Shown one piece after another: positions 49,991 through 56,172 of a stretch of 64,000 nucleotides of DNA. Position 1 is the first letter of the stretch; the number at the start of each line of letters is the position of its first letter. The DNA comes from a virus (lineage: Duplodnaviria > Caudoviricetes): IMG/VR virus record IMGVR_UViG_3300037483_000352, positions 24,084-88,083 of that record; one strand, given 5' to 3'. The position numbers and the translations under genes were made by a program. The notes beneath the pieces are model-generated. The model was given only the letters and a program-made list of their open reading frames with translations, was not told where the DNA came from and ran no database searches.

Positions 49991-50135
49991 GCAGCGGTAC
50001 GCCGATCAGAAGTGCGGCACCGGTGCCGAACAGGCCCCATGGACCGAACAGCATGGTGAGACTCGCCGCGATCATAGCAATACCGATCAGGACAAAGATC
50101 ACGCATTCGCGCCGGGTCACCGGACCACCACCCAA
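49935..50135 (-). CDS. Small 2-TM protein
   Basis: Hydrophobic ORF between the terminase and portal genes. Confidence 0.55.
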   Translation of the reverse strand: MGGGPVTRRECVIFVLIGIAMIAASLTMLFGPWGLFGTGAALLIGVPLLVDQVDEVTERKEVKPNG

Positions 50136-51754
50136 GGATCAGCTGTCGTCAGTTCATGTGCCCTGGCCTGGAGGCCCCAGATAGCCAGGGTCGCGGCCAC
50201 CAGCGGGGAGATATCCGTCGTGGTCGACTTACGGTCCCAGGCCCACAGTTCCGCAAGATTACGCTTGGCCGCGCCGGACACCGCCAGCGTCAGGGACACC
50301 TGATCCCGGTGAACCAACCTCTGGGTCTCGCCCTGGGGAGGAACCACGGACGAACCGAACCACCCGCAGGTCTGCGCGTACTCGCGAGCCGTGGGTGACT
50401 GGACCTCCATGTTCAGGGTGTCCATAACCCCGCCTTCACGCTCCAGGTCGGTGATCAGAGACCCGGCCTGGGAAGCGCGGTCGATGACGATCGCGGCAGG
50501 TTTCCACCGGGTGATCAATGCTTCAAGCCGGGGAACCACCCACCGGTCACCGGGCTTGTGATCCAGGTCGTCCTCCCCGGTGATCTCTATGTGAGTCAGC
50601 CCGTCCGGGTTGGTACCGGCCACCGCGATGCAGGCGTACTTCCGGTCCGGGGTCATGTCGACGGCGAACACCAGGGGCGCAATGGGTGAGGACGTGAGGT
50701 CGGCCGCAGCCTGCCATGACGGCTCGTCGATGACTTGCCAGGCGTCCTCCTCAACCGGCCAGTCACCGAGTCCCAGCCGCTCCCTGTCGAATTCTTCAGG
50801 GTCCATCTGGGACTGTTCCCCAAGGATGTGTTCGAGGGACTGCCGGGGGTCCATGACGCCGCCGATCCGGATGCCGAATCCCGGGTTGGCCTTGGCGTAC
50901 GAGATGATGATCCTGTTGGTCTTGCGGATGATCTCTTCCTCGGGCATGCCGGGAAGAATCTGGAACCGCTTCTGATCGTGTTCCTCGCAGTCCCGGGGGC
51001 AGAAGTTCGAGCACGGCTCCACGGACCATTCCAGGAACGACACCCGGGGCTCCCCCCGCAGGCCACGGCGGCGCAGACGTCCGAAAGCTGTGGAGTGCTT
51101 GAACCCGGCCGACCCGGCGTAGATCACTTGCGGATTCGGCACGGCGGACAGCGTGGGCAGGATCGCGCCTACCGCGACGCCGGACAGGATCATGGCCTCG
51201 TTGAAGATCAGACAATCACATGTCCAGCCACGGCCGCCGCCCTCCGTCCGGGTACGGAACCGCAGCTCACGAGTCACCCCGTCACGGACGATCTCGATGC
51301 CCTCCTTGCCGTGCGACCGGCTGACCGACCCCCGGTGTGTGGTGAGGAACCGGTCAAGGTCGGGGGTGGATTCGATCAGCTGCTCGATGCGCTGGAAGTG
51401 CCGCAAAGCCGTGTCGTAGAGGTGGGCACTGTGGATAGTCAGCTCGTCGTCTTCGGACAGGAACAGGCCGAACAGCTCACGGGCTTCGAGGACGACGTCC
51501 TTGCCGTTCTGGCGTCCGGCCACCAGCCCGAAATCCCTGGATGACCACCTTCCGTCGCTCTGGACTCCGAGTAGTTCGTCCAGCGCCAGCGCCTCCCAAG
51601 GGTCGAGTTCGAGGCCCGCTATGGATGCCAGCTCGCGGGCCTCTTGCCCGCGAGAACTGATCTTCGAGGGGACGCAGTAGATCCGGGGTATCTGATCGCC
51701 CTGGTCGGGCAGGATCAGACGCGGATCCCATGCGTCCACCCGGAGAAGGCTCAC
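50117..51754 (-). CDS. terL: Terminase large subunit
   Basis: Walker A GRQNGK, SAH....A, RG...D.LIFNEA, RERLG.W, nuclease VDMTPDR. Confidence 0.92.
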   Translation of the reverse strand: MSLLRVDAWDPRLILPDQGDQIPRIYCVPSKISSRGQEARELASIAGLELDPWEALALDELLGVQSDGRWSSRDFGLVAGRQNGKDVVLEARELFGLFLSEDDELTIHSAHLYDTALRHFQRIEQLIESTPDLDRFLTTHRGSVSRSHGKEGIEIVRDGVTRELRFRTRTEGGGRGWTCDCLIFNEAMILSGVAVGAILPTLSAVPNPQVIYAGSAGFKHSTAFGRLRRRGLRGEPRVSFLEWSVEPCSNFCPRDCEEHDQKRFQILPGMPEEEIIRKTNRIIISYAKANPGFGIRIGGVMDPRQSLEHILGEQSQMDPEEFDRERLGLGDWPVEEDAWQVIDEPSWQAAADLTSSPIAPLVFAVDMTPDRKYACIAVAGTNPDGLTHIEITGEDDLDHKPGDRWVVPRLEALITRWKPAAIVIDRASQAGSLITDLEREGGVMDTLNMEVQSPTAREYAQTCGWFGSSVVPPQGETQRLVHRDQVSLTLAVSGAAKRNLAELWAWDRKSTTTDISPLVAATLAIWGLQARAHELTTADPWVVVR

Positions 51755-52197
51755 CGGACGGCGCCGTGACCGGATCCGCGACGGCGGCCGTTCGCCTCAC
51801 GCCGGGGACCACCGAGGGACCCCGGCCGCCGCGCGGCCAGCTCATCGTAGGCAGACATGTGCCCGGGGTCATCCGGGACTTTCTGGGGGTCGGACTCTTC
51901 GATCCCCTGCGCTTTCATAAGCTGCCGGATCAGGGACGAAGACACTTCCACCGACCGGTTGTTCCCGCCGATGGCGGATACCCACACGGACGACAACAGA
52001 CGTGAGATCCTGGCCATCTGAAGCGCCCTGGTGGCGGTCGGAGACAGGGCGTCAATGGGGTTTTCCGTAAGCGCTGTTTCTACGTCCGCGACGGCTTCCG
52101 TGCGCGAGGAATAGCCGCACTCGACGACGATCACGTTCCAGTCGACACCCGCGAGGGCAAAGCCAAAAGCCTTCTTACGGCGTGCTTCGGGGGTCAT
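51751..52197 (-). CDS. terS: Terminase small subunit
   Basis: N-terminal HTH and helical core; overlaps the terL start. Confidence 0.7.
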   Translation of the reverse strand: MTPEARRKKAFGFALAGVDWNVIVVECGYSSRTEAVADVETALTENPIDALSPTATRALQMARISRLLSSVWVSAIGGNNRSVEVSSSLIRQLMKAQGIEESDPQKVPDDPGHMSAYDELAARRPGSLGGPRREANGRRRGSGHGAVR

Positions 52198-52210: not shown

Positions 52211-52966
52211 CTAATATCCGGACACCGTGGCGAAAGCGCCCATGACTACCCACGAGTGCCACCGGAAGAGTACTTCCGGAGCCTTCCACCCGGCCGACTC
52301 CATGGTCATTTTCAGGGTGGATTCAGGGTACGGCATGAGGACTCCCCGGAGCGCTGAGGCCTTTGCCCGAATGGCTGACGCGTCGATCCCGTGGTCAGCC
52401 TTCCAGTCGTGGCTGAGGTCGTTGGCAATCTCCGCCCACCGGGCATCGGTGGGCCGGACCTTCTCCGCCACCAGCAGGGCGCCGGTTTCGTTGGCGCACA
52501 TGCGCGCGTTGCGCAACGCCGCCAGACGGCCCCGGAGAGACATGAACTGGAGGGTGAAGAAGATCAAGGTCAGGTCGGCGTCGGCGTGCTTGAGGGGCTG
52601 GGTGATGTCGTGATCGAAGTACTGCACGTGCTCCCCGGAATGTGGCTCCTTCGCCATGAGCGCGGATGCCCGGGTGAGCATCGGCTGTTCCACGTCATAG
52701 AGCGCCGCATGGATGTTCCGCTGAGGATGACGGGCCATCATCCGGCGCACGGTGGTGCCCGTGCTGGCCCCCAGGTCGGCCACCAAGCCACCGGCCGGAA
52801 CAGTCCAGTCGGAGACTTGGGCAGCAAGATCCTGAATGGCGTCGTAGAACGGGACCGAAGCCCGGACGTGCTGGTCGAAGACGTCCACCACGTCCTGGGT
52901 GAAGGCCCATGATCCGGTCTGGAACTGCTCGGCGACGTCAGCCGTAGAGCCGTCGGTGTTCGGCAC
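52211..52966 (-). CDS. cmoA: CmoA-like carboxy-S-adenosylmethionine synthase homolog
   Basis: W.F...V..VFD..V..SVP.Y, DLG.S.G, FTLQF, LLVAEK, HDWK...G align by eye along the full length of E. coli CmoA. Confidence 0.8.
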   Translation of the reverse strand: MPNTDGSTADVAEQFQTGSWAFTQDVVDVFDQHVRASVPFYDAIQDLAAQVSDWTVPAGGLVADLGASTGTTVRRMMARHPQRNIHAALYDVEQPMLTRASALMAKEPHSGEHVQYFDHDITQPLKHADADLTLIFFTLQFMSLRGRLAALRNARMCANETGALLVAEKVRPTDARWAEIANDLSHDWKADHGIDASAIRAKASALRGVLMPYPESTLKMTMESAGWKAPEVLFRWHSWVVMGAFATVSGY

Positions 52967-54341
52967 GGTAGTACCTCACTGGTTGTGCGAGTCGGGTGGT
53001 GATCGCGGTCTTGAGCCCCATGCCGTCCTGGAAGGCCACCTTGGGGCGTTCGATCACTGCTGAGGGTAGGTCACCCCGGTAAGCCCGCTGGAGGACGGCC
53101 TTGGGCTGCCCAGGCCCGTTCTGGACGGACACCCGGGGCAAGGACAGGGCGAAGTCCACCACGTCCGGGTCGAGGAAGGGCAGGCGGCCCTCCACCCCGT
53201 GAGCCATGAACGCCTTGTTGACCCGGGGGAAATTCTTGATCGCCTGGGACAGGATCAAGTCGCGCCGGTAGGTGTGCCAGTCCTGCTTCTGGAGGCCGTG
53301 GTACGCGAACCCGTACGAGGCCCACAGCTCGTCGGATCCCTCGCCGGTGAACGTGACCTTGAAGCCGTCGGACCGGATCCGTTCGGCCAGCGCGAGGCAC
53401 GGCCAGCCGATCTCGATCTGCGCCTTGAACGGCATCTCGATGTGGCGGATCACGCCAACCAGGTCGTCCGCCGTGGGGACGTCGACCTTCACTTCAACCA
53501 GGGCCAGCCCGAGCGCTTCGGCCGTCTCGCGTGCGCACCGCAGATCACGTGACTTGGGGTCGAGCACGGCGGTGTAGCAGACCAAATCCGGTGTGCGTTG
53601 GGCGAGTTCATAGGCGATGACCGCAGAGTCGATCCCGCCGGACAGAAGCGAGCAGACCGGGACATCCGAGATCATGCGCCGGTCGACTGCGCGGGACAGC
53701 GCGGTACGAAGGATCTTGCTGGCGTCCAGAGGCTGGACGTCCATGGGCAACGGGGCCAGCCGGTGGAATGCATGCGGGGTGATATCCCCGGCCTTGTCGA
53801 TCTCCCACCACTGCCCCGGCGGGACGTCCACCACGGCCGCTCCGCAGCGCCGACCCAGCGCGGTGAACGCCTTCAACTCGGAAGCCACCACCACGGGATG
53901 AGCACGGTGAACATGCAGTGGGATCTCCCCCCGCCGGTCGCGCGCCACGAACAACACGCCCGGCCGGTCCCTATCCGCCCACGCGATGGCGAACATGCCG
54001 TCGAACAAGGGGAGTGCGGCCCCCGGACCGAGCACGGCAAGAGCCGCCGCGATCACTTCGGTGTCCCCGGTGGTGTGCCACACCCGGCCAGGGTCAAGAG
54101 CTTCGACCCGGCTCCGAACCCGGGGCGCGTTGAACAGTTCGCCGTTGTAGGAGATCGTCACCGCGCCGTCGGTGTACGGCTGATCCGACCGGCTGTCCAC
54201 GTCCTGTATCGCCAGCCGGGTGTGCCCGAGACGGACGCCTCCGACTACCGTGATCCCGCGCGCGTCCGGACCCCGGTGGTCCATGGCCAGGACGGCCGGG
54301 GCGAGATGGGCCCACCCGGCCACCGCCACGATGCCGCACAT
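52938..54341 (-). CDS. asnB: Asparagine-synthetase-B-like glutamine amidotransferase
   Basis: MCGI N-terminal nucleophile, HRGPD, GHTRL, NGEL.N, PP-loop SGGIDS, GEGSDE, EGRLPFLD. Confidence 0.9.
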   Translation of the reverse strand: MCGIVAVAGWAHLAPAVLAMDHRGPDARGITVVGGVRLGHTRLAIQDVDSRSDQPYTDGAVTISYNGELFNAPRVRSRVEALDPGRVWHTTGDTEVIAAALAVLGPGAALPLFDGMFAIAWADRDRPGVLFVARDRRGEIPLHVHRAHPVVVASELKAFTALGRRCGAAVVDVPPGQWWEIDKAGDITPHAFHRLAPLPMDVQPLDASKILRTALSRAVDRRMISDVPVCSLLSGGIDSAVIAYELAQRTPDLVCYTAVLDPKSRDLRCARETAEALGLALVEVKVDVPTADDLVGVIRHIEMPFKAQIEIGWPCLALAERIRSDGFKVTFTGEGSDELWASYGFAYHGLQKQDWHTYRRDLILSQAIKNFPRVNKAFMAHGVEGRLPFLDPDVVDFALSLPRVSVQNGPGQPKAVLQRAYRGDLPSAVIERPKVAFQDGMGLKTAITTRLAQPVRYYRAEHRRLYG

Positions 54342-55651
54342 CAGATGATCCCCTCTTCGAGCAGGGGCATGAGGATCTTGTCCCGGACCGTCTCTGCGAT
54401 CTTCGCCATCATGACCGGCGGGACCGCGCGCCCGATCCGCTCCCACCGCTGGCTGTAACTACCCGTCAGGGTGAAGTCCGGCGGGAACCCCCCGAGGGCC
54501 CGCAGTTCGACCAGGTTGAGCTTGCGGGGCTCCGTCCAGTGGGCCGGGCCGGTGATCGTGATGTCGCCCTGCGCAGCCATGATCGTGTCGTACGGCTGGT
54601 CCGGGTGCTGCCGCCGCACGTGGAAGTACTTCTGCGACTTCTGGCCGGGCCGAAGCTTCTTCCACTCCTCGTGCACGGCATACCCGATCATGGACAAATT
54701 CTGGCCGGTCTCGGGGTCTACTGGATCGCCTCCATTCATCACGTGGTGGTACGTCTGAGTGGTAAGGGGAGGGATCGGGGTATCGGTCACGTCACCCTTG
54801 GAGAACGTGGGCCGGGACCCCCGGGTGTCGTGCACCATGCGCACGTCGTCCGTGACGACCCTCGCGCCGTGGCCGCGTGTCGGCCCGGTGGTGACCGCAG
54901 GCGAAGGTTCGTCAGCAGCCCGCAGCGCACCGCCTTCGAAACGCTGCCGGTCGTACTGCGCGCCGATGTACGGCAGCGCGTCCCGCACGGTGTACTGGTA
55001 CGGCATGGGGCGAGGGTGGACCGGAGCCATCGCCAAGTCGTTGCGGACCCCGACCAGGATCAGCCGGTTGCGGACCTGGGGGACACCCAGCCAGGCCGCA
55101 TTCAGCACCTTCGCGATGACCCGGTAACCGGCCGCCTTGAGCGCCGCGAGGATCTCCAGGAAGTAGCCCTTGGCCACCCCGCGCACCAGGCCCGCAACGT
55201 TCTCCGCGACGAACACCCGGGGCTGCGTTTCCTTGATCAACCGGACGTATTCGAAGAAGAGATCGTCGACCCGCTGCTTGGTGTCCGAGTACTTCTTGAC
55301 CTTGCCCCATCCGCCCTCCAGCCTCCCCGCTGTGGAGAATGCTGAGCACGGGGGCGAACCGTCGAACAGGTCGATCTCTCCGACACCCAGCCCGGCCGCC
55401 GCGAGCAGGTCCGCGCCGGTGACTTCCCGGATATCCCGGGTGTCCAGATGGGTGTACGGAGCCATGTTGTTCCGGTAGGTGTCCTGCGCCGCCGAGACGA
55501 ACTCGGACGCATAGAGCATCCGGAACCCCGCCATACGGTCGCCGGTCGAAGATCCTCCGCACCCGCTGAAAGTCGACACGGCGTTGAAACCGTTCCACGG
55601 CAGGTCCCTGATCTGCTCCATGGTCATTACGGAGTACGGGGGCTTGATCAC
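54341..55651 (-). CDS. C5-cytosine DNA methyltransferase-fold enzyme, predicted carboxymethyltransferase
   Basis: FSGCGG (I), GSPPC (IV), ENV.GL (VI), Q.R.R (VIII); motif X reads IGRAVPP instead of IGNAVPP. Confidence 0.88.
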   Translation of the reverse strand: MIKPPYSVMTMEQIRDLPWNGFNAVSTFSGCGGSSTGDRMAGFRMLYASEFVSAAQDTYRNNMAPYTHLDTRDIREVTGADLLAAAGLGVGEIDLFDGSPPCSAFSTAGRLEGGWGKVKKYSDTKQRVDDLFFEYVRLIKETQPRVFVAENVAGLVRGVAKGYFLEILAALKAAGYRVIAKVLNAAWLGVPQVRNRLILVGVRNDLAMAPVHPRPMPYQYTVRDALPYIGAQYDRQRFEGGALRAADEPSPAVTTGPTRGHGARVVTDDVRMVHDTRGSRPTFSKGDVTDTPIPPLTTQTYHHVMNGGDPVDPETGQNLSMIGYAVHEEWKKLRPGQKSQKYFHVRRQHPDQPYDTIMAAQGDITITGPAHWTEPRKLNLVELRALGGFPPDFTLTGSYSQRWERIGRAVPPVMMAKIAETVRDKILMPLLEEGII

Positions 55652-56172
55652 TTGGAACCGCCGGACCAATGGTAGCCGCATTTAGGGCATGTGTGTTCGG
55701 TCTTGATCGTCTCGTCGAATTCCGCGAAGTCCTCCGGCGCCTGTGGTGCCTCCACCGCCAGCGCGGCTTCCAGGTCGCCGACGTACCCAGCAATCTCCTC
55801 GTCTGTGTACCCGGTACCGGCGCCGTCGCCCTCCAGGTCCCGCAGCAGCAGCGCGAGGGCCTGTTCGTCGTCCTCCGCCAGGTCGTTGGACCGGTTGTCG
55901 ACCAGGTTTATCCGGCGGGCCGTGTCGTCATCGCAGTCGATGAACTCGCACCGGGCCTGGGTGCCCCCGAGTTCACTGATGGCGGTCATGGTGTGGTTAC
56001 CGGCCAGCACGATCTGAGGGCCGTTCTTGATCTCCCGGACGATCAGCGACCGGTACTGACCGTTCTTCTCGATGGACTCCTTGATGACGTCCACCCGGCC
56101 GCGCCGGGCATTGCCGGGGAACGGGGTGAGCTGGTCGAGAGAGACCATTTCGGTGCGCAGGTAGCGGGTCAT
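55648..56172 (-). CDS. ParB/Sulfiredoxin-like domain protein with a C-terminal CPKC zinc ribbon
   Basis: PGNARRG..IKESI..NG...LIV...LAGNHT...DN. Confidence 0.8.
   Translation of the reverse strand: MTRYLRTEMVSLDQLTPFPGNARRGRVDVIKESIEKNGQYRSLIVREIKNGPQIVLAGNHTMTAISELGGTQARCEFIDCDDDTARRINLVDNRSNDLAEDDEQALALLLRDLEGDGAGTGYTDEEIAGYVGDLEAALAVEAPQAPEDFAEFDETIKTEHTCPKCGYHWSGGSK

Follow-up and report, generated by a model that had tools for sequence, protein, structure and literature searches.

The locus considered here raises the question of whether a phage enzyme with the fold and motifs of a DNA cytosine C5-methyltransferase (C5-MTase), and with arginine at the position of the canonical motif X asparagine, transfers a carboxymethyl group from carboxy-SAM (Cx-SAM) in place of the methyl group of SAM. 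The gene lies on the minus strand of a window of 64,000 nucleotides (the whole stretch of DNA analysed), which belongs to a virus record of 88,083 bp and also contains genes for a large terminase, a portal, a protease-capsid fusion and a tape measure protein. A sequence-only reading had pointed to this arginine and proposed a natural Cx-SAM-selective enzyme. Our results support the view that 54341-55681 (-) encodes a CmoX-type Cx-SAM-dependent DNA cytosine C5-carboxymethyltransferase, to which we assign a probability of roughly 0.85. The assignment is based on orthology in sequence and fold, conserved contact residues, synteny and co-occurrence; the cofactor selectivity, the DNA target and the final product are inferred.

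The CmoX system appeared in print in December 2025, supported by a crystal structure, mutagenesis and analysis of phage DNA (PMC12783734), and the window protein (hereafter CmoX) is a further example of that system, not a discovery. With the window, the published CmoA-CmoX-CmoY family gains an uncultured actinophage of 88 kb, and the rule that the motif X Arg accompanies a supply of Cx-SAM is independently re-tested. Modest additions are a set of CmoA-less relatives with Asn in motif X, a motif IV residue and a serine (Ser132) that switch together with the Arg, and a ParB-like neighbour whose linkage is independent of the cofactor.

The cassette and its closest relatives

Four overlapping genes directly upstream of the terminase genes form a cassette. 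They encode a ParB-like protein, CmoX, a CmoY of the GATase type and a CmoA homologue, and are translationally coupled; the TGA stop of CmoX, for instance, shares bases with the start ATG of the gene that follows it (TGATG). The features used below are the following, all on the minus strand.

50117-51754 (-): large terminase (TerL; phrog_9, E 6e-57); the terminase genes (50117..52197) lie directly downstream of the cassette
51751-52197 (-): 148-aa ORF, possibly the small terminase; no Pfam match
52211-52966 (-): CmoA homologue, 251 aa (TIGR00740); overlaps the end of CmoY by 29 nt
52938-54341 (-): CmoY-like amide ligase of the AsnB glutamine-hydrolysing type, 467 aa (PF00733, PF13522, PF13537)
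54341-55681 (-): putative CmoX orthologue, predicted C5-carboxymethyltransferase, 446 aa (PF00145, 8YF3, Foldseek)
54428-54430 (-): Arg418 codon CGC, at the motif X Asn position; equivalent to SpCmoX R350, HhaI N304 and MpeI N374
54818-54961 (-): residues 241-288, an insert of some 48 aa within the target-recognition region, predicted to be disordered; missing from TurkishDelight gp123 and from SpCmoX
55286-55288 (-): Ser132, part of the GWGKxKxYSD hairpin that follows motif IV; Ser in Arg-type enzymes, E/A/H/G in Asn/Asp-type ones
55343-55357 (-): motif IV, S109-P110-P111-C112-S113, with catalytic Cys112; Ser113 stands where canonical and Asn-type enzymes have Gln (PCQ)
55648-56172 (-): ParB-like protein, 174 aa (phrog_723, E 5e-43); overlaps the start of CmoX by 34 nt

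The IMG gene call begins CmoX at Met19 and gives a protein of 428 aa. We disfavour that start and prefer the 446-aa one, since the residues upstream of Met19 (K13, P14, Y16, V18 and P19; window 55627-55681, -) are conserved across relatives; it is this longer form that overlaps the ParB-like gene by 34 nt. The CmoY-like ligase matches TIGR01536 (E 1.4e-72) and has both an N-terminal class II amidotransferase domain and an AsnB-type synthetase domain; it begins MCGIV, which places a Cys2 nucleophile at its N-terminus.

The same four genes, in the same order, are found in the Streptomyces phage TurkishDelight (NC_073473, gp122-125), where the cassette also lies next to the genome end and the terminase. 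Identity between the two phages is 57-64% for CmoX, 70% for CmoY and 63% for CmoA, and in motif X the two CmoX proteins carry one and the same string (WERIGRAVPPVMM). The TurkishDelight CmoX is annotated just as “methyltransferase”, and the window protein differs from it (gp123) by carrying the extra insert of about 48 aa, which is rich in Ala, Gly, Pro and Arg and has a pLDDT below 50 in the AlphaFold2 (AF2) model. The two phages also differ in terminase lineage: the large terminase of the window is most similar to those of Rhodococcus phages (best match 42%) and other actinophages, and TurkishDelight is absent from the best 12 terminase matches listed. The terminase is nearest to Rhodococcus phages (42%), the cassette to TurkishDelight (57-70%); the cassette itself seems to be exchanged among actinophages that are otherwise unrelated, while its position immediately before the packaging genes is retained. 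A megablast search of the cassette against GenBank phages returned nothing, its relatives there being detectable at the protein level only.

The window ligase is 70% identical to TurkishDelight gp124, which is UniRef A0A7T0Q3R0, the named representative of the second-largest ligase cluster in the published survey; this cluster was predicted to use glutamine-derived ammonia, and its authors did not obtain a soluble enzyme from it (PMC12783734). Because of this closeness to A0A7T0Q3R0, the window cassette falls in a branch that was surveyed but left untested in that paper.

Motif X and the match to SpCmoX

In a sequence search of the PDB, the top match of CmoX was 8YF3 (E 2.6e-64), followed by M.HaeIII (1.7e-21). 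8YF3 is SpCmoX from the Synechococcus phage S-B43, bound to Cx-SAM (Yang et al., Nat Commun 2025, PMC12783734). This enzyme moves the carboxymethyl group from Cx-SAM onto C5 of DNA cytosine (PMC12783734), and is the only natural DNA carboxymethyltransferase characterised so far. An AF2 model of CmoX built with 46 relatives (mean pLDDT 81, pTM 0.80) was weak only at residues 246-316, in the variable target-recognition region, and a Foldseek search with it again returned 8YF3 first (E 7e-28, TMt 0.84). The two proteins are 41% identical. The residues named as Cx-SAM contacts are all conserved: F25, E47, F48, D69, C98 and R350 of SpCmoX are identical to F38, E60, F61, D83, C112 and R418 of the window protein, and F38, E60, F61 and D83 are invariant or nearly so in the 46 relatives. 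Judged by sequence, the window CmoX is thus an orthologue of SpCmoX, with which it has in common the C5-MTase fold, the SPPC(S) motif IV, the motif X Arg and all named Cx-SAM contacts.

CmoX matches PF00145 (C-5 cytosine DNA methylase) with an E-value of 1.1e-50 over profile positions 1-322 of 324, and also NCBIfam dcm. Its motifs are FSGCGGSS (I), GSPPCSAFS (IV), AENV (VI), PQVRNR (VIII) and GRAVPP (X). The SPPC motif with the catalytic Cys, which spans S95-C98 in SpCmoX, is present (S109, P110, P111, C112), and the Glu/Arg motifs that hold the cytosine (E160-N161-V162, or ENV, and Q202, R204 and R206, or QxRxR) are invariant in the 46 relatives. M.HhaI, M.HaeIII and Dcm share with CmoX the fold, the catalytic Cys, the ENV and QxRxR motifs and base flipping; they differ in carrying a Gln directly behind the catalytic Cys and an Asn in motif X, and in using SAM. 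Where canonical MTases combine GN[AS]V in motif X with PCQ, CmoX has GRAV and PCS.

A direct read of the minus strand at 54433-54422 gives GGG CGC GCG GTC (ggg 54433-54431, cgc 54430-54428, gcg 54427-54425, gtc 54424-54422), in the same reading frame as the 446-aa ORF 54341..55681 (-) and encoding G417-R418-A419-V420. The string IGRAVPP was placed by script at residues 416-422 of CmoX. The HMMER alignment sets it opposite IGNAVP of M.HaeIII and VGRMVPP of SpCmoX, and the longer strings ERIGRAVPP (window) and ERVGRMVPP (SpCmoX) align without gaps, with R418 paired to R350 in both HMMER and MAFFT. Since the Arg is paired with the Asn of IGNAVP, it lies inside motif X, at the canonical Asn position. 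The sequence-only reading had placed an Arg codon of motif X at 54428-54430, and coordinates, frame and alignment all bear this out; the possibility that the Arg might fall outside motif X is answered by the same alignment. The residue is neither a chance change nor an error, because Arg is kept at this position in 112 of the 133 unique relatives of the subfamily, and because going from an Asn codon (AAC/AAT) to CGC requires at least two base changes.

In the crystal structure of SpCmoX, Arg350 replaces Asn304 of HhaI and touches the carboxymethyl group of Cx-SAM; the wild-type enzyme accepts Cx-SAM as its sole cofactor and refuses SAM, and the R350N mutant is dead with both (PMC12783734). Engineered carboxymethyltransferases (CxMTases) also recruit carboxy-SAM through a cationic side chain, placed either where motif X has its Asn or beside it: M.MpeI N374K, which had been correctly cited as a precedent for the window enzyme, M.MedI N377K and M.CviPI Y205K all yield 5-carboxymethylcytosine (PMC13288465, PMC12015181). 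These are single-site laboratory mutants that carry only the Lys and retain SAM activity, whereas the natural enzyme has Arg together with a motif IV change from Gln to Ser/Ala, and its own cofactor synthase. It is conceivable, though improbable, that CmoX is likewise a dual-cofactor enzyme, making 5-methylcytosine from abundant SAM as well as 5-carboxymethylcytosine, and so a mixed phage DNA, given that M.MedI N377K and M.MpeI N374K still methylate (PMC13288465, PMC12015181); against this, natural SpCmoX works with Cx-SAM only (PMC12783734), and both its Arg and its motif IV Ser are common to the window protein.

The Arg itself is a weaker guide than it may seem. In DNMT3A and DNMT3B this motif X residue is likewise a conserved Arg (R887 in DNMT3A), yet these enzymes use AdoMet (PMC13594970), so a motif X Arg alone is not diagnostic of Cx-SAM use. 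The proposal of a natural Cx-SAM-selective enzyme is well supported: orthology to SpCmoX, the match to R350 and the linkage to CmoA speak for it, whereas the Arg by itself is no proof. The identification of Cx-SAM as cofactor rests, in consequence, on the SpCmoX orthology, on the altered motif IV and on the linkage to CmoA.

The correspondence with the S-B43 system has limits. The S-B43 cassette also contains a CmoA gene and an AsnB-family ligase, but its gene order is different; its ligase SpCmoY ligates glycine, whereas the window ligase has a glutamine amidotransferase domain (ammonia being the predicted donor), and its host is a cyanobacterium, that of the window phage an actinobacterium. 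Moreover, the target-recognition region of the window CmoX (approximately residues 218-376) is unrelated to that of SpCmoX, is some 70 residues longer, and does not align with it. The GpC specificity of SpCmoX (PMC12783734) is for this reason not transferable, and the DNA target of the window enzyme may differ.

Co-occurrence of the motif X arginine with CmoA

A search of viral contigs with the window CmoA as the lone protein returned a single locus, and CmoA genes were therefore sought inside MTase loci. IMG/VR was scanned three times, the queries being the window CmoX and two of its Asn-type relatives; with TurkishDelight, S-B43 and a locus derived from CmoA added as three further records, this provided 164 classifiable loci. 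Removal of identical proteins left 133 unique subfamily transferases, 40-65% identical to the query. For each, we scored the residue aligned to position 418 and searched the flanks for CmoA, using a purpose-built HMM and also tblastn. The outcome for the 133 unique transferases was as follows.

Arg at 418: CmoA present in 107, absent in 5
Asn at 418: CmoA present in 0, absent in 20
Asp at 418: CmoA present in 0, absent in 1

The expectation that the motif X Arg would co-occur with cmoA was thus confirmed, with 107 Arg-type enzymes beside CmoA and five without it, compared to none of the 21 with Asn or Asp. Four of the five exceptions are in fragmentary or incomplete contigs, several of them with the transferase near the contig end. 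The fifth comes from a jumbo phage contig of 262 kb, in which a stretch of 17.8 kb surrounding the transferase was examined; related Erwinia jumbo phages carry CmoA at a distance of about 20 kb from the transferase gene. Among the Asn-type genomes, two complete ones, with terminal repeats, have no CmoA at any position. The association is strong by Fisher's test (p 4e-20), a raw value that precedes any correction for phylogeny: the proteins without Arg fall into just two clades (18 and 3 members), so that the co-occurrence amounts to approximately two independent events. A quick IQ-TREE tree and a FastTree tree are each compatible with the Asn type having arisen once or twice.

The other cassette genes behaved differently from each other. 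Only Arg-type enzymes had the GATase-type ligase next to them (32 of the 111 such relatives from other genomes). The ParB-like neighbour was found at 101 of 111 Arg-type and 19 of 20 Asn-type loci, and since it adjoins both types, its linkage is independent of the cofactor.

The Asn-type loci include L080:8001-9242, L081:8001-9332, L078:1886-3082, L109, L114 and L118. Asn/Asp-type relatives are 41-49% identical to the window CmoX, mostly have the canonical Gln after the catalytic Cys, and have neither CmoA nor a ligase at their loci. From their sequences, the Asn-type proteins look like natural SAM-using counterparts within the CmoX subfamily. The published survey counted 5,615 Arg-bearing homologues, 4,257 CmoA genes and 2,251 ligases, its two filters being the SPPC motif and the Arg (PMC12783734); the filter that requires Arg would have left out the Asn-type relatives.

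Two other alignment positions change along with the Arg. Directly behind the catalytic Cys, nearly every Arg-type enzyme has Ala or Ser (Ser113 in the window protein, Ser in SpCmoX), the sole exception being one poorly aligned jumbo-phage locus (L120); Asn-type enzymes have the canonical Gln there, apart from a small group with Val. At position 132, Ser is found throughout the Arg-type enzymes, and E, A, H or G in the remainder. The parts played by R418, S113 and S132 are suggested by alignment to 8YF3; we infer a role for Ser132, around which the AF2 confidence is only 64-66. The motif IV change agrees with the re-engineering of bacterial C5-MTases for larger cofactors, in which substitutions in both motif IV and motif X are generally needed (PMC13594970), and it may account for the inactivity of the single SpCmoX mutant R350N.

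These distributions bear on a second alternative, namely that CmoX is an ordinary SAM-dependent 5-methylcytosine MTase that tolerates a motif X Arg, while CmoA serves another purpose, such as modification of host tRNA. The DNMT3A/DNMT3B precedent (PMC13594970) is compatible with it, as are the fold and the catalytic motifs, all of which are those of C5-MTases. We nevertheless consider it very unlikely: CmoX is far nearer to SpCmoX (E 2.6e-64) than to any methyltransferase (1.7e-21), and wild-type SpCmoX refuses SAM (PMC12783734); the Arg tracks CmoA, with no Asn-type enzyme beside CmoA among the 133; and no CmoB homologue is annotated in the cassette regions of S-B43 or TurkishDelight, nor was one found with NCBIfam among the six ORFs scanned from the window cassette region.

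The CmoA homologue and the predicted product

The assignment of the window CmoA needs some care. The protein matches TIGR00740 with an E-value of 4e-30, at 105 bits versus a curated cut-off of 193, and NF011995 at 70 bits versus 285, so that both scores are below the cut-off; CmoA is nonetheless the best-scoring family for 52211-52966, and the best PDB matches are YecO (1IM8) and CmoA (4GEK). The protein keeps Y39, G64, F133 and Q136, but has Ala in place of E. coli Arg199 and Phe in place of Asn132. We had considered the Ala as an argument against Cx-SAM synthesis, and rejected it: SpCmoA, a faster producer of Cx-SAM than its E. coli counterpart (PMC12783734), also lacks this Arg, having Glu there and Leu for Asn132, and the missing Arg199 is therefore no evidence against Cx-SAM synthesis. 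The two phage proteins, only about 26% identical, have in common an Arg at the position of E. coli 203.

The hypothesis that the CmoA homologue yields some other SAM derivative, and that the transferase installs a group other than carboxymethyl, could draw on the Ala and Phe substitutions and on the TIGR00740 score, but it is very unlikely given that SpCmoA, a proven Cx-SAM maker, is likewise without Arg199 and Asn132 and has the same Arg at 203, and that the Arg in the transferase pocket and the adjoining ATP-dependent carboxylate-amidating ligase both call for a carboxylate.

Under the CmoX-type carboxymethyltransferase reading, the pathway would proceed as follows. The phage CmoA (52211-52966) would make Cx-SAM from SAM and prephenate. 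In CmoX, Cys112 would attack C6 of the flipped-out cytosine, as in a C5-methyltransferase, and the C5 carbanion would accept the carboxymethyl group of carboxy-SAM in place of the methyl group of SAM. Arg418, replacing the motif X Asn, would form a salt bridge with the extra carboxylate of the cofactor, and Ser113, replacing the motif IV Gln, would probably make room for that carboxylate. The glutamine-dependent CmoY (52938-54341) would then probably amidate 5-carboxymethylcytosine to 5-carbamoylmethylcytosine. The latter is the likely follow-up product, a DNA base that has been predicted in print and never detected.

A broader proposal can be built on this pathway, to which we give about even odds: CmoX may mark a target other than GpC, it may write 5-carbamoylmethylcytosine together with the glutamine-dependent CmoY, and Arg418, Ser113 and Ser132 may constitute a three-position cofactor switch that has been flipped about twice. 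If true, such a switch would explain the dead R350N mutant, and would provide a natural recipe for the conversion of MTases into CxMTases and vice versa.

In most of the other phage CmoAs in the loci, position 199 is Glu and position 203 is not Arg; as far as their sequences indicate, the carboxylate-binding arrangement is variable among phage CmoAs. One further CmoA was found in a different context. Gordonia phage Evaa (OP434461.1, L085:1-5649) has a CmoA homologue 48% identical to that of the window, directly before the terminase. The sole methyltransferase nearby is a 511-aa protein fused to ParB-N, which has no C5-MTase motifs and whose only Pfam match is a weak one to ParB_N; this protein could be a different, non-CmoX Cx-SAM-dependent DNA transferase.
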